The notes under the pieces were generated by a model. That model saw only the letters and a program-made list of their open reading frames with translations. It was not told the DNA's origin and searched no databases. From a virus (lineage: Duplodnaviria > Caudoviricetes): a stretch of DNA of 64,000 bases. The stretch lies in the IMG/VR virus record IMGVR_UViG_3300044612_001981, positions 1 through 64,000 of that record; one strand, given 5' to 3'. The translations under genes and the position numbers were made by a program. This document shows positions 32,182 through 43,504 of this stretch, piece by piece; the first letter of the stretch is position 1; each line of letters starts with the position of its first letter.

Positions 32182-32630
32182 TATACTTCTTCCAGTGCTA
32201 TAGATACATCCCAAAATACTTGTTTCCCGCTTGCTGGACCATCTGTTATATTTCTTCTAACCATGGTTGATGAAAATGATGTAAATGCGGCAAGGAATGT
32301 CTCTGATCTTGTATCATTGTATGCAATTTTTACATTAAATGTTCCCTGTCCTTTAGCGCTTAAATAAAAAGCCTTTAGGTTTTCCGCCCCCCAGTATCCA
32401 TCTACCGTCATGGTGGTGTATGAAGGAAGCATGCTCCAGGAGGTGGACACTATCTTCTTGTCGGCTATAAAGAGCTTTCTAAGGCTTCCATTGGCCATTC
32501 TAGCGGTCTTCTCAAACCTTTCGGTATCGACTGATATTGGAGACCTATTATGCTCACTTAGGGCATGGAAGACTCCAGCATCGTCTTGTAAAAACAGTGC
32601 TGCTCCTACTGGCAAAACTAAAGATGGCAT
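32181..32630 (-). CDS. Distal tail (Dit-like) protein
   Basis: Immediately after the TMP; RMANGSLRK...IALEEV. Confidence 0.7.
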   Translation of the reverse strand: MPSLVLPVGAALFLQDDAGVFHALSEHNRSPISVDTERFEKTARMANGSLRKLFIADKKIVSTSWSMLPSYTTMTVDGYWGAENLKAFYLSAKGQGTFNVKIAYNDTRSETFLAAFTSFSSTMVRRNITDGPASGKQVFWDVSIALEEV

Positions 32631-41600: not shown

Positions 41601-43504
41601 GCGCTCATAGCACTTGCTTTTAATCTATCAAATGAAGCTGCTAAAGTAAGTACTGCATCTGAGAATGTAGCGGCCGCCTTAGTATCGCTATAGAATGACT
41701 GCTCTACAGTTTTAGCAGCAGCAGATGCTGCCATTAATTCTGGTGTTAATAATTTAAATCCAGTTCCGCCCTTACCAATATTTTTAAGAGCTAATACTCC
41801 CTTAATTATGTATCCAAAGAAGTTTGCAAGCACACCAGTAAGCATGATGATAGGACCAGCAATTGCTGTAAGCCCGCCAATAAATCCTAGTACTGCTTTA
41901 ATTGGTGCTGGTAGATTCCCAATAAACTTTAAAATGCCATCAATAGCATTTAATACAAATGCACCAATTTTTAAGAACTGATCTCCAACTACAGCCAGTT
42001 CTGCCTTAACAGATTCGAGTGCTCTTCTGTATTTACCAGATGCAGACTCTGTAAGCGCTGTTAATTCTCGTGCTGAAATTGCAGCTAAGTCTTGTGTACT
42101 TGCTTTCATCAAGTCTAAGACTTGAAGAGTCTGGCTTCCTTCTTTACCTAAGTTTTCGAATAAAGCATTTATTCTAGCAAACTGGAACTTTCCAAATAGC
42201 TGCTCAATTGCTCTTGCTCTTTGTAATGGCTCAAGGGAATCTAATGAATCCTTTAATGCCATTATTGTGCCAGTTAAATTTCCAGCATTTTTATTTACAA
42301 TGCCAGATAAGTCTATACCAAACCCCATGAACATTTCTTTTGCAACCTTTGTGGGGTTGATAACAGATGCTAAAGCAGACTTTAATGCGTTAGCACCTTC
42401 TGATGCATTAATTCCACCTTCACGCATAGCAGTTAAATAAAGTGCAAGGTCTTGTACATCTCCGCCCAAAGCCTGAACAACTGGTCCTGCTTTTGGAATA
42501 GCAGTTACTAAGTCATCTAGAGTAGTAGACGTCTGGTTTTCAACTGCGTTCAAGAAGTCAATAGACTCAGCAAGCTCCATCGTATTTTGACCGAAGGCTG
42601 TCTGAATTGCAAGTGTGGCCTTCATGGCTTCTTGTCTATCTACTTCACCAAGAATTGCAAGTCTAGTTGTTTGTCTTGTAGAGTCTATAAGATCTGCGCC
42701 TTGTTTTCCAGTTGCAGCAATATCTGCTGCTAAAGCGATAGTCTCTGTAAAGTTTGCTCCTAGTCCAGAAGCTAATTCTCTAGAAACTGCCATAACATCT
42801 TTGCGAACTTGAAGAAGATCAGCGCTTGATGTTGCAGTTAATCCTCCGTAAACTTTTGTTAAGCGAGTTAATTCTTGATCTGCTTCTTTAAATGCTTTTG
42901 CTGCAGCCATACCAAATGCTGCTAAAGGAACTGTAAGACCAACTGTTAGCTGTCTACCAGCCCACTGTGTATTCTTACCCCAGTTAATTAGCTGATTAGA
43001 TCCATCCATCATAACCTTATTCATGATGGCTAGCTCTTGTCTTAGAAGCGCTGACTTATTCTTTGTAACGTCTAGTCCAGATTGAACCATTACGTTGTAT
43101 TGCATTAATCCTTGTGCATTTTTACCAATAGGCTGAATTATTGCATTCTCAAGCATAACCTGCTGCTTGGCTAAATCTCTAACTAGTGAGCTAGTCTTTT
43201 GTGTATGACCTTGCCAAGTTCTAAAGTATTGGCCAAGCTTCATTCTTCCGCTATCTAGGTTTTGACCAAACTTAGATACGTCTGAAGTTAATGTTACAAA
43301 GTGTCTAGAGAACTGACCAGTGGAGCGCATGGTTTCGTCAAACTGACGATTCATGACTCCAACCTGGCTAGTCAGATTCTTATTTAAACCAATTGTTGTA
43401 GCTTGGAGCTTTAAGAGTTGCTGAGTAACCGCTTGTAACTGCGCTGTTAGGCTAGAAAAATTAGCCGTCGCAGTTATGTTGGTTACTATATTTTGATCTG
43501 CCAA
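32630..43504 (-). CDS. Tape measure protein, 3624 aa, with embedded cargo domains
   Basis: TP901-type TMP core (LTVGLTVPLAAFG...GINASEGANALKS...EQLFGK), hydrophobic Ala/Gly segments, GEKGPE and GTGTSDSIPAYLSNGEYV motifs; follows the tail chaperones. Confidence 0.95.
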   Translation of the reverse strand: MADQNIVTNITATANFSSLTAQLQAVTQQLLKLQATTIGLNKNLTSQVGVMNRQFDETMRSTGQFSRHFVTLTSDVSKFGQNLDSGRMKLGQYFRTWQGHTQKTSSLVRDLAKQQVMLENAIIQPIGKNAQGLMQYNVMVQSGLDVTKNKSALLRQELAIMNKVMMDGSNQLINWGKNTQWAGRQLTVGLTVPLAAFGMAAAKAFKEADQELTRLTKVYGGLTATSSADLLQVRKDVMAVSRELASGLGANFTETIALAADIAATGKQGADLIDSTRQTTRLAILGEVDRQEAMKATLAIQTAFGQNTMELAESIDFLNAVENQTSTTLDDLVTAIPKAGPVVQALGGDVQDLALYLTAMREGGINASEGANALKSALASVINPTKVAKEMFMGFGIDLSGIVNKNAGNLTGTIMALKDSLDSLEPLQRARAIEQLFGKFQFARINALFENLGKEGSQTLQVLDLMKASTQDLAAISARELTALTESASGKYRRALESVKAELAVVGDQFLKIGAFVLNAIDGILKFIGNLPAPIKAVLGFIGGLTAIAGPIIMLTGVLANFFGYIIKGVLALKNIGKGGTGFKLLTPELMAASAAAKTVEQSFYSDTKAAATFSDAVLTLAASFDRLKASAMSATVATSNGISTVGGSTVLAGGGRIVDKDNPLVGRPYSRDMSHVIPTGSKTPQQRADETIFSTVPGPKPVNLRLSNSPQTYMHEDLPRIHGVTAVNGVSNGIVASEAAKWHSMTAAIAMQSKAELAILKTEVAATGTITASLADSYQALLPQMTRITTLAADETALIVQQLQAGKITVEAARAKIFALNAQVEAMMVQTAQGVAAAQARTISLTTVPLTSQPVVSATGKSNMKELFHKTETAKMVDAIARGLGVRTSGAGYSIHTTKPRFNTGGKIESFGPNKTQVTGPASITYDDRMGDVPLGGYVLNQSASMDPRNAPLVAAAPSTYDNSGSNITALLTPKETVFGPGIQDNPELFRAVDAANNGVPLPQHAAGGKIKLSRSSYGLPALTIKSLFKNKISEYRKRVAELAEQKNKTRIDPRGRDTQIIGSYGGRTWVTRGASTNAAIDDYMRSLPPSERRKAAKVIEEFSASIETTKRAAERGAPRGRDAFAIEAGHLEANKGALAKKLAENELPPLDLNKIIHATHLTRAVVINGKRYVSKYTVDYDAQSNLQANQGTLLAKDFLDRNMGRTGKYDRLMRKSGVPQEKWADTEKEIDQKIKAILRGKESKKIGDEKGDITFDSFIPLIDSSIVSAGGSAAKLKELQRNVVERKNSGGIVGGKVKPGKFNYGRLFLGMPRSIKQVEKQRQARLTMEEIDAGVRAGKYSTMPPTNFGKLDTPTTGHSFPVEGIGGVYIKPDGSKVFVKPVMDEDAALSQQRATMIVRGGHEMHSPTQEIRTMIDPTDPAGRRKLIVLESPYDKAFATQSGVFDEKAYFKQLVAANLRGDKDLSRDNISGRNVNDTGTDGVYDRASGKRRFHGEWKDGEWIDKMPSMQEMARINLLGVKGGAKRFFAEATLNIPKGMTPQQYHQKMIDEIDEVLPKLKETIAKFGDLNPTEAAVYAAMIKRLEEGRRVNWEEFHGIHSAVKVSPPKALTPAALKKLKDEAELRIRQRGHAISLSDNSFKTPLNGFNGGGIINVLKSLAMRRIGAGFGPTGAPKPSMYESAPWGVSSLSIKAAETLFASTGLRPYSQKLLYDKFAAALAKEKPYGYVKGPDGSLRNALEPSSLDAVIRKAASDLISDRSAFKQLSPIDRDILKRRYLNWDSKKDTPITAELKKKIFGIDGEREMGGPVSPGQSYLVGEKGPEIFSPLQSGNIIPQFALGGLIKRSKDFYGEKITDVSQITSKEHAKRLLKSGDPSQRAMGQLYLNNLAASRTPMPVVGTPPKPGPLSVGTTTVIGNGGVRTNVPTIQGSLPYVPSVPLQRANQAIDSAIGSIASRLKISSDKLVVRARMMGSEINSSMMALTGSIQKLGTSIKTTSTAASTSIASTVRRFTSTYSPGGSQILAYGVPGSLAAGVGQSYGPAAFGEDSGVSKAKRAGTAFSTNAKYTTAAMMHPLQFLKSKGMGADPDRPFGSGAGGMLVGTIGGMAAGGAIGNAVGGQNGMMMGSMVGSMAGPAIMQGAGKIVTSMAGKAVAAGAVKAGLAATAAGVAGIVAPLAAVAAAGYAAYKMWGHYKRGQELNIQSFGLTAEAAKKAGLRFTDFGSKIKDTIQDSEDLAAANKLVYESMKDGGTPFQMTIAEYKKLKKEVKETFAEQIAVLDRQPSEKVPDAVRRIKEQLIAAGMSADEATKKVFTMLQLSNKKDQSITATIGNAKFKNITDPQSAAVSAVTSFGADTRDQGSKEKAASLNTALMATETGINDLIAKRERLVAKDLTGKTKSLTYAEAEKIMLDKINRSKESGTAITQATVDEMAKTNPEVRKMINGSDTVVSVWQKIRLQAQGFNGDLSQLNAAQTKLIADAFAAISDAVIAKNKVGILKDQYTALGKLDEQIKKYTKSLKGQSVAEQISDRDRLKALNKQIDAINKLAEARKKALAQQQADADIGRQIEKTRLEMQNAMAVGDTEKAQSLRIDLESLTSQQQTEAQMNAIDKAAEAATKPLKAAADAIANKQEKLGDAAAIAAESLDKLKDKYSKQEAAIKKVNDSMTALYGNAAAAGLSVKDYMKKNKEAAAGFVAAMEAATGAAMPRYKERTYYNGSQLVTEKVPVAPWENALEALAKAGAGAGVNEALADSIKGGKNGKTLKDVVDAVKGINGKPALRENIKVTGDYSDSKETKEYDGKKVQVLNAEARDAIRKRLDLQPGETFIVDGQRYKQNTTGGTPIWMGPAPKTPALAAGGHIRGAGTGTSDSIPAYLSNGEYVIKEKAVRKYGVETFDALNAEKFADGGPVRRGIRQQLPFFPWRPDLPNYWSDGKPTGSPYTGRWGELRYNPSSGRDIWGGTEIPGLKFTGKTPQQSDYWHQMQEQPGKSRGPGMGIDKDPMRLAGSGASMGGIGNGAYGFGPLMFHAGGPVGHRHGRNAPPTDKRSNLSKTWDFLKEAVKETGRSADWLYAMYQSGQGSRNPFFLSQNNRAKFQQIQDLKNAGLDAEAKKALLINHGLSSLNVGSLFLGGAVGSAAVRGAVGAYGINRLGVVGLETLLPTGSLTYGTKALTGVAANVAATSSKSILESRIASTVRPKVAASADEIVPPTRETAPFPRTKEVQDAIDEAKKWNTFRENEFKAIEEANPDYLQLHKLLVAIDEETHALKMAGGRYWNETRGPIYKSVHETPGSPDKQLFDKHSKNDDFWKYHQQKYKNEIELDRISRAEKYNITPSEVLALREFLEMPLTGHLDYRKSGIEQLVSRFTIPEGTVSYRGLSDIDMEALSKIGIGESFVAPTVRSITDNKIAAAAIGAFGGTGGGRSGAIARIIFGPNVKGISDIGVLGEAQGLSHEGLIGPNTRFILEQIIRGGAQSSRYENQAGVHMMNIVPGQGKIITETLDEYVLRAVKMKLGGLVNVPKFESGINVVPQDMLAMIHKNESIIPASMNPFNPEAAMPRYNFDRPSFGIRGEGSSGASYTVNQNIYASEGMDVEALSNMIVKKAEVVIGQKAKVNVKMVGQGKNI

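Follow-up and report, generated by a model that had tools for sequence, protein, structure and literature searches.

The DNA analysed here is a 64,000-nucleotide stretch of a tailed virus (Duplodnaviria; Caudoviricetes), positions 1 to 64,000 of IMG/VR record IMGVR_UViG_3300044612_001981, referred to below as the window. A single open reading frame (ORF) on its minus strand, open throughout 32630..43504, encodes a tape measure protein (TMP) of 3,624 amino acids (aa), and this protein is, with high confidence, a string of exchangeable modules delimited by copies of one short glycine motif. The best overall reading, to which a probability of roughly 55% is assigned, is that of a module-laden TMP that is probably cut at the motif and expelled into the host. 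Considered separately, delivery of the modules into the host is slightly favoured, and cleavage at one or more of the motifs falls a little short of even odds. The tail probably delivers enzymes into the host, because the modules are swapped at the motif and the motif matches the mapped cut site in the TMP of phage T5.

Copies of the motif and their conservation

The first-pass annotation had described the protein as a series of cargo modules separated by repeated xxxGG motifs, and had listed ten such copies together with FESG. All 11 strings were recovered 0-2 bases from where it had placed them, and the two conserved TMP motifs that it had named between them, GEKGPE (aa 1819-1824) and GTGTSDSIPAYLSNGEYV (aa 2864-2881), are both present and both lie under PHROG TMP profiles. 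The list was incomplete, with LAGGG (aa 652), VPLGG (aa 934), MAAGG (aa 2107), and LFLGG (aa 3126) having been missed. Six of the ten listed xxxGG copies are given here with the evidence from relatives, in which breaks of protein homology were taken from the ends of high-scoring segment pairs (HSPs); the other four bound elements 1 and 2, described below.

40784..40798, minus strand: FNTGG, aa 903-907; GG kept in 66/66 relatives
40475..40489, minus strand: HAAGG, aa 1006-1010; protein HSPs end at aa 1010-1020 in many relatives
39626..39640, minus strand: KNSGG, aa 1289-1293; HSP starts and resumption of DNA homology
38549..38563, minus strand: FNGGG, aa 1648-1652; GG kept in 67/67 relatives
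34418..34432, minus strand: FHAGG, aa 3025-3029; DNA break with relative L002 nearby
32963..32977, minus strand: MKLGG, opening the C-terminal part; ..PKFESG.. follows

Bare GG dipeptides are little enriched in the TMP (43 seen, 33 expected from composition). The extended motif has a bulky or basic residue at position -3 and Ile or Val two residues past the GG. The pattern GG[^G][IV] is present in 16 copies against 3.51 +/- 1.82 in shuffled sequences, with 0 of 5000 shuffles reaching 16, and the stricter [FYHLMRK]xxGG[^G][IV] in 13 copies against 1.08 +/- 1.04, with 0 of 5000 reaching 13; 12 of these 13 are located after aa 880. From about aa 900 onward, the protein is a chain of modules set apart by this motif. 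Because both patterns were defined post hoc, on data already seen, the enrichment is real but its probability is optimistic.

Relatives were collected by a scan of viral contigs with aa 1293-1845, which yielded 80 loci; in 60 of these the ORF is complete, with 2,493-3,693 codons from stop to stop. The GG was kept in 66/66 relatives at site 903, 67/67 at 1648, 66/66 at 1804, and 59/60 at 1838, and at each of these four sites it is encoded by 7-8 different codon pairs. Sites that could be aligned in fewer relatives kept it in 6/6, 18/18, 4/4, and 7/7 cases, and no relative aligned across MKLGG. The flanks in relatives follow [F/Y/R/L]-[N/A]-x-G-G-x-[I/V], frequently with Pro next, and the family consensus of the copy before FALGG is RNSGGI[IV]PN.Y. 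A logo pooled from all GG contexts was uninformative, with little information outside the GG itself, because junction and non-junction GGs are mixed in it. A peptide that is conserved while its codons drift is under selection as a peptide, which means a function at the protein level and more than a DNA recombination signal.

Exchange of modules at the motif

Comparison of 67 distinct sequences with the window TMP gave 279 internal HSP ends, of which 100 were no more than 5 aa away from any of the ten motifs (null 2.8%); when each position was counted once, the figure was 21 of 101. An all-against-all comparison of 48 distinct complete TMPs, which is independent of the earlier motif list, placed 454 of 2,174 unique internal ends at most 5 aa from GG[^G][IV] (89.8 expected) and 691 at most 10 aa from it (172.1 expected), counts that are not independent events since the sequences are related. 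Each of the ten motifs coincides with a homology break in at least one comparison.

The DNA of close relatives places the breaks more sharply. With one relative (L002), 95% identity extends to aa 3038, nine residues beyond FHAGG, and homology returns at aa 3516, two residues beyond MKLGG; an unrelated cassette of about 545 aa lies between, and the break is recent. DNA homology with three others (L005, L061, and L009) stops at aa 902-907 (FNTGG) and resumes at aa 1290 (KNSGG). In L076 and L077 it stops at aa 1020, ten residues past HAAGG, and resumes at aa 1647.7 (FNGGG), the kinase module being absent; L076-L081 as a set resume at aa 1647-1648, and the homology of L066 and L070 ends at aa 1654. 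Of the 279 internal ends, 30 are HSP starts within aa 1286-1292 (KNSGG), and 18 of these are at aa 1290; the protein homology of relatives resumes at aa 3514-3520 in the C-terminal part. Some breaks have no motif: homology starts again at aa 2020-2147, inside a Gly-rich hydrophobic stretch, and protein-level ends are scattered across aa 2666-2834, a region of low identity.

Alternative occupancy is seen in the segment between HAAGG and KNSGG.

39641..40474, minus strand: module A, aa 1011-1288, variable slot A; window allele in 3/48 complete TMPs, no Pfam hit

Slot A alleles are 146-342 aa long and form at least four groups unrelated by hhalign. Some are distant homologues (95% probability for c1 vs A0); c5, c9, and the type carried by the window show no relation to the others (at most 7%). 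These alleles were grouped from clusters of HSP gaps, as anchor-based extraction mapped 28 sequences only. At the C-terminal end, the cassettes of L002 and L048 showed no relation to the profile of the window's ADP-ribosyltransferase (ART)-like module, and the ESM Atlas gave for the L002 cassette leads below 0.9 only, with ART-PolyVal clusters at 0.77-0.83.

Among the 48 complete TMPs, the core consists of the kinase module (46), module C (43), element 1 (48), and the second ruler-like segment (48); modules A (3), D (10), F (2), G (1), and H (1) are rare. The suggestion that the motifs are recombination joints was therefore borne out, as related TMPs exchange, delete, and replace modules there, and in the proposed alignment of related TMPs the variable regions start and stop at GG motifs about five times above chance. 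The picture of a swappable magazine held for exchange at the motifs and failed for the kinase module, which is not freely swapped.

A wider set of giant TMPs, L086-L092 (at least 3,200-3,939 aa), has only a few parts in common with the window TMP: element 2, the kinase module (30-55% identity), the TMP N-terminus (33-54%), and, in L086 and L087, the ART module (50-52%). The giant TMP of L085-L087 continues past the 5' end of the locus, so that its length is at least 3,936-3,939 aa; it has the kinase module and a C-terminal ART and is otherwise unrelated to the window TMP over about 2,500 aa. A candidate stand-alone ART protein (P0002) was rejected because it is a TMP fragment at the end of a contig, the TMP itself measuring at least 3,936 aa, and gives no evidence for split forms.

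The mapped cleavage site of T5 pb2 and the processing of lambda gpH

Two short elements, each bounded by two motif copies, link the window TMP to TMPs that are known to be cut.

37979..38095, minus strand: element 1, aa 1804-1842, REMGG...GEKGPE...FALGG; 48/48 TMPs, alignment A4
34784..34945, minus strand: element 2, aa 2854-2907, LAAGG...GTGTSDSIPAYLSNGEYV...FADGG; unit of about 50 aa between two motif copies

The TMP of T5, pb2, is described as cut after R1127, with the released pb2C retained in the tail and expelled at infection (PMC10038345). The fetched pb2 sequence reads ...FVPR(1127)AEGGMMYPGVSYQMGEHGTEVVTP, the cut being R|AEGGMM...GEHGTE. Counted by hand and without gaps, T5 R1127-AEGGMMYPGVSYQMGEHGTEVVTP is identical to window REMGGPVSPGQSYLVGEKGPEIFSP at 12 of 25 positions, and element 1 as a profile aligns with pb2 1127-1160 (hmmsearch, 10.3 bits, E 7.6e-5 in a search of three sequences). 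This is one motif instance among five GG dipeptides in pb2. Because the R1127 stretch aligns with REMGG...GEKGPE, the mapped T5 cut, the only such mapped site in a TMP, falls within an instance of the motif, three residues before the GG. This lends indirect support to the first-pass suggestion that the motifs are processing sites. The GEHGTE stretch of pb2C, which we take to be the described metallopeptidase motif of T5, has a His where the window family (GEKGPE, 38033-38050) has an invariant Lys; if that assignment holds, the window family probably has no zinc site in the shared element. A 1973 paper in the T5 reference list is, from its title, said to point to a part played by the host when a T5 tail protein is cleaved.

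From lambda gpH, a peptide of about 14 kDa is cut out of the Gly-rich C-terminal region and partly kept in the tail tip, the site and the protease being unknown (PMC12617516). The first-pass annotation credited gpH with a single FATGG near its processed C-terminus, which is incorrect: the fetched sequence has FATGG at 733, YATGG at 778, and a C-terminal RDGGLF. A cut after F733 of FATGG would release 12.5 kDa by computation. In searches of three sequences, element 2 matched gpH 729-782 (FATGG to YATGG) weakly, at E 0.006, and residues 1634-1697 of the TMP of Streptomyces phage Tomas at E 6.7e-8. By eye, the Gly/Ala-rich segment at aa 2090-2187 of the window TMP resembles the Gly-rich stretch at aa 700-725 of gpH.

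If all ten window sites were cut in the T5 manner, the pieces would be 95.5, 10.7, 31.3, 39.9 (kinase), 16.9, 3.6, 106.7, 5.2, 13.3, 52.7 (ART), and 12.3 kDa. A JAB or NlpC/P60 protease of the lambda gpK type was considered as the cutting enzyme and set aside, as neither family was present in the source record, a viral contig of 80.9 kb with an estimated completeness of 72%.

Kinase-like and ART-like modules

The two enzyme signatures noted in the first pass were both recovered as predicted folds, using AlphaFold2 (AF2) models compared with known structures by Foldseek and VIA.

38555..39628, minus strand: module B, aa 1293-1650, atypical protein-kinase-like fold (AF2 model, VIA, Foldseek)
32978..33874, minus strand: module H, aa 3211-3509, helical N-domain followed by an R-S-E ART-like fold (AF2, Foldseek, VIA)

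The module B model, built from a 41-sequence alignment, had a predicted local distance difference test (pLDDT) score of 74.5. Its VIA matches were CotH (Z 12.0 over 215 aa, 3.8 A), CtkA (11.1), and PI4KII (about 10), followed by Fam20C (9.4), HipA (9.2), and LepB (9.1); the Foldseek matches listed were all of kinase fold, with weak E-values (best 7.1e-4). The residues K1382, D1463, D1465, N1470, and D1478 are invariant in 41/41 module B sequences, and the expected series of a strand-3 Lys (K1382), D-x4-N (D1465...N1470), and DxG (D1478-T-G) is present, the roles of these residues being assigned from motif order rather than from the active site of the model. Module B is thus predicted to have an atypical protein kinase fold.

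Module H was modelled with a pLDDT of 82.8 from an 11-sequence alignment. Foldseek returned SpvB and CDTa at E 2.8e-7 and probability 1.00 among 121 matches at E <= 0.001, and VIA returned VIP2 (Z 12.6 over 149 aa, 2.9 A) and C3 (12.3) among 141 chains at Z >= 8, the best 50 listed all being ARTs. The key residues follow in the order R, Ser-x-(Ser/Thr), Glu, as R3375 (SYRG), S3401 (S3401-I-T), and E3453; the Ser and Glu are invariant in 11/11 sequences, and relatives carry YR(G/A/S/T)L, with some rows misaligned. The model accordingly assigns module H an R-S-E ART fold. The viral-contig scan with aa 3030-3515 found no relative of this region; a HMMER library search did find relatives, and ten module H homologues contained no Pfam family save OmpA in one. 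In both AF2 models the motif-adjacent ends have pLDDT below 50.

Proposed mechanism and alternatives

In the mechanism proposed, the TMP of a long-tailed (siphovirus-type) phage would have reached 3,624 aa through the gain of modules that fold separately, within the region equivalent to the Gly-rich C-terminal end, with its motifs, of lambda gpH and T5 pb2. The kinase, the ART, at least five modules without an assigned fold, and a second ruler-like segment (hydrophobic plus helical) are strung between copies of the motif. The protein would be synthesised as a single chain that is threaded into the tail as this assembles, and at that stage, as with T5 pb2 and lambda gpH (gpH* and gpHC), it would be cut at some or all motif copies, by analogy with T5 between the residues at -3 and -2 before the GG and possibly by a host-derived protease. 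The pieces would stay in the tail lumen until their expulsion ahead of the DNA, by which the kinase, ART, and other modules could reach the host envelope or cytoplasm and act on host targets. Because every cassette would be framed by the same site, the uniform motif would let phages exchange cassettes.

A broader form of this reading is doubtful: that [F/Y/R]-x-x-G-G-x-[I/V] is a general TMP maturation site, cut between -3 and -2 in T5 (where the cut is mapped), in lambda (where it is predicted after F733), and at up to ten window sites, giving an ordered set of free proteins fired into the host ahead of the DNA from swappable cassettes, in effect a natural plug-and-play protein delivery system. 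If the motif is the cutting site, it makes a testable prediction for the maturation of lambda gpH, whose site and protease are unknown (PMC12617516), and of other TMPs; the lambda site has been unknown for 50 years, and the prediction of a cut after F733, if true, would settle it. Siphophage tails would then carry changeable, ready-made enzymes (a kinase, an ART, and others) into the cell before gene expression, and the motifs would be natural joints for placing foreign modules in the tail ruler.

Several observations weigh against cleavage and delivery. The T5 match is short and not significant PDB-wide (profile of module C plus element 1, residues 1127-1161, E 1.9), and it bears directly on one of the ten sites, REMGG. 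Since the gpH cleavage site is unknown, the agreement with lambda concerns size alone, the computed piece having 12.5 kDa and the cleaved peptide about 14 kDa. Apart from the prohead protease, the 80.9-kb record, estimated as 72% complete, yielded no protease. Modules of 30-50 kDa, present three or six times, could not be accommodated in the tail lumen when folded, so they would have to travel unfolded or lie elsewhere. The kinase module belongs to the family core (46/48) and is not swapped cargo. In the window copy, the helix-C Glu, present in 40/41 module B sequences, is Gln1393 (39326-39328), preceded by Ser where 40/41 have Ala, and the window kinase may be weakened or altered. In module H the first E/Q of the ART ExE motif is absent, the window having Ser-His-Glu and the position varying in relatives. 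Because of these two substitutions, either the kinase or the ART might be altered or inactive. The phage and its close relatives are all uncultured and known from sequence only.

The main rival, which is possible though less probable than the best overall reading, takes the motifs for spacers or docking peptides that are not cleaved, such as short strands packing on the tube wall, against chaperones, or against other TMP copies; the modules would stay tethered, and exchange would proceed through the sole conserved micro-homologies at domain boundaries. Conservation of the motif at the protein level fits any function of the peptide, and a conserved unit of about 50 aa, resembling a small domain, is flanked by two copies of the motif in both lambda and Tomas. 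The giant TMP gp96 of Thermus phage P23-45 is described as a TMP fusion, with a single, unrelated mention of cleavage in the text available (PMC10770324), and the lack of a dedicated protease in the 72%-complete record also suits this explanation. It is opposed by the T5 motif instance, which stands exactly at a chain cut, and by the low confidence of the motif-proximal ends in the two AF2 models, which look like linkers rather than packed strands.

It is improbable that the modules are not injected effectors but parts with a role in tail assembly, in length control, in the producing cell, or on the cell envelope from the outside, their enzyme folds being structural relics. The Gln at the helix-C Glu position of the window kinase and the missing first ExE residue of the ART would agree with relics, and the core status of modules B (46/48) and C (43/48) is as expected of structural parts. 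The invariance of the catalytic K, D, N, and D (41/41) and of S and E (11/11) argues instead for activity. The ART (50-52%) and kinase (30-55%) modules recur in otherwise different giant TMPs with N-terminal parts 33-54% identical, and TMPs are described as leaving the tail and entering the envelope or the cell (PMC10038345, PMC12617516, PMC10770324).

Very little credence is given to the motif as a by-product of Gly-rich composition, with breakpoints due to uneven divergence rather than exchange: the modest excess of bare GG (43 vs 33), the uninformative pooled contexts, and the distant homology of some slot A alleles (c1 vs A0, 95% probability) would suit it, but the extended motif stands at 13 copies vs 1.08 expected, close relatives pass abruptly from 95% DNA identity to none and back at motifs, unrelated alleles occupy one slot, and whole modules are absent in L076-L081.

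Remaining modules and segments

The other parts of the TMP downstream of the kinase module are as follows.

38096..38551, minus strand: module C, aa 1652-1803, highly conserved; 43/48, alignment A3
37238..37978, minus strand: segment D, aa 1843-2089, Ser/Thr/Pro/Gly-rich and variable (composition); 10/48
36944..37237, minus strand: Gly/Ala-rich hydrophobic segment, aa 2090-2187 (hydropathy and composition)
34946..36943, minus strand: second ruler-like segment, aa 2188-2853, Pro 2.3%, A/E/K/L/Q 47%; 48/48
34433..34783, minus strand: module F, aa 2908-3024, Trp/Tyr/Pro/Gly-rich; recurs in library proteins
33875..34417, minus strand: module G, aa 3030-3210, Gly/Ala-rich and hydrophobic near aa 3100-3170; 1/48, relatives P0018-P0024
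32633..32977, minus strand: C-terminal part, aa 3510-3624; starts with MKLGG, then ..PKFESG..

Alignment A3 of module C has a mean column identity of 82%, and no PDB sequence matched it. Within it, a stretch of about 27 residues, RIGAGFGPTGAPKPSMYESAPWGVSSL (aa 1664-1690, window 38435-38515), is almost invariant in 39 sequences, has variable flanks, and is more conserved than the enzyme modules. A three-copy complex prediction for element 1 gave a score of 0.01, below the mark, which speaks neither for nor against oligomerisation. The sole PDB match of the element-1 profile, a weak one (E 0.68), was to residues 672-699 of chain M of 9occ (TMP gp18); the matched stretch, NGGPAQEGSMYRVGENNLPEIF, lies near the C-terminus of this 780-aa TMP, and the solved 9occ structure may show where element 1 sits. 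Homology at the borders of segment D ends at aa 1839-1853 and resumes at aa 2020-2147. From its Pro-poor, A/E/K/L/Q-rich composition, we infer that the second ruler-like segment is helical. A PHROG TMP profile covers aa 2832-2903, at element 2. Most of 41 library proteins found at E <= 1e-10, many of them giant (up to 3,978 aa), match module F, for which neither the ESM Atlas nor the PDB gave a usable lead. The C-terminal part, at 114-115 aa, is near the size of T5 pb2C (92 aa).

Pfam returned no family at a meaningful E-value for ten segments of the window TMP, nor for eight alternative cassettes from relatives, and nothing significant came from searching PDB sequences with modules B, F, and H or with the A1 and A3 profiles. 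Modules A, C, D, F, and G received no assignment from Pfam, PDB-sequence, or Atlas searches, and at least five modules of the window TMP are without an assigned fold.

Gene identity and genomic setting

The assignment of the ORF as a TMP rests on its N-terminal part and on its neighbours.

32630..43504, minus strand: whole TMP ORF, 3,624 aa plus stop
40907..43504, minus strand: canonical TMP N-terminal part, aa 1-866 (Pfam, PHROG, and hydropathy)

Pfam family PF10145 (PhageMin_Tail) matched aa 243-438 (window 42191-42778) at E 3.9e-25 with 89.3 bits against a cut-off of 33.2, eleven PHROG TMP families matched within aa 10-866 (best 1.2e-123, over aa 155-862), and a hydrophobic segment was located by hydropathy at aa 535-573 (window 41786-41902). 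On the same strand, the genes for portal, head maturation protease, major capsid protein, head-tail adaptor, an Ig-domain protein, and two small ORFs precede the TMP gene, and a 149-aa ORF, a 1,119-aa minor tail protein, and a further tail protein follow it. The gene therefore lies between the tail tube/chaperone genes and the distal tail genes, as in phage Tomas. Because of the PF10145 and PHROG matches and this gene order, syntenic with that of Tomas, the ORF is a true TMP gene of a siphophage rather than the product of a chimeric assembly. The tail length implied by the whole TMP is 3624 x 0.15 nm = 544 nm, by arithmetic; the first pass had put it at about 500 nm. Counting the two ruler-like parts alone would give about 230 nm.

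The head-to-tail gene order at 27561-52437 is syntenic with that of Streptomyces phage Tomas (Stanwilliamsviridae), and the G+C content of the window phage is about 38%, which in combination suggest a low-GC actinobacterial host, with actinobacteria of freshwater or soil as the likely candidates. Within the structural gene block, two neighbouring genes at 55797-57201 match 2OG-Fe(II) oxygenase PHROGs. The protein encoded at 54664-55776, upstream of the portal gene and apart from the tail genes, has 370 aa and many matches to tail-fibre and tail-spike PHROGs.

Comparison with known systems

The closest cultured relative found was the TMP of Tomas (gp63), with 36% identity over aa 157-669. The structural modules of the two phages are syntenic and element 2 is common to both TMPs, but the Tomas TMP is 2,094 aa long, has only three copies of GG-x-[IV], and matches none of the window TMP modules. 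Lambda gpH shows a comparable layout, a Gly-rich hydrophobic stretch followed by FATGG...GEFV...YATGG, where the window has LAAGG...GEYV...FADGG; it is, however, a protein of 853 aa without enzyme modules, and the link is one of layout and size only.

The polyvalent proteins of phages and conjugative elements are giant and multi-domain, include ART and kinase domains, and are proposed to be co-injected with DNA and possibly processed (Iyer et al. 2017, PMC5512222). The main text of that paper, as available, contains zero mentions of the tape measure protein. They resemble the window ORF, with its kinase-like and ART-like modules, in combining several unrelated catalytic-type domains in one giant protein. 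No Pfam polyvalent domain (e.g. ART-PolyVal, PF18760) scored on the window segments or the alternative cassettes, the one lead being the sub-threshold Atlas matches (0.77-0.83) of the L002 cassette. They differ in that the polyvalent kinase is without a C-lobe, whereas the window kinase is predicted to have a full CotH/PI4K-like fold.

P23-45 gp96 is a 5,002-aa TMP fused to a virion RNA polymerase, and as a giant TMP with an enzyme that works inside the host it is a precedent for delivery (PMC10770324). It carries one N-terminal enzyme, and the available text of the same source describes no motif-fenced array and no exchange at motifs; its sequence is unrelated to the window TMP modules. The Sle1-type effectors of actinobacterial contractile injection systems are likewise TMP-related carriers with an exchangeable functional domain, loaded in a tail-like tube (PMC13277306). 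They belong to a contractile system and have one variable C-terminal domain, and a repeated delimiting motif is not mentioned in the text available (PMC13277306). Peptidoglycan hydrolase motifs also occur in TMPs (cited in PMC12617516).

T5 pb2C and P23-45 gp96 are thus already known as cases in which a single enzyme is fused to a TMP, with Sle1 as a nearest case too; full-text literature searching found no description of a TMP with an array of enzyme modules framed by one peptide that matches a mapped maturation site. T5 pb2 is a TMP cut during tail assembly, with R-x-x-G-G...G-E-x-G-x-E at the cut in an element that it shares with the window TMP. It has one copy of the motif and a C-terminal piece of 92 aa, whereas the window TMP has at least ten copies and about 2,700 aa of modules.

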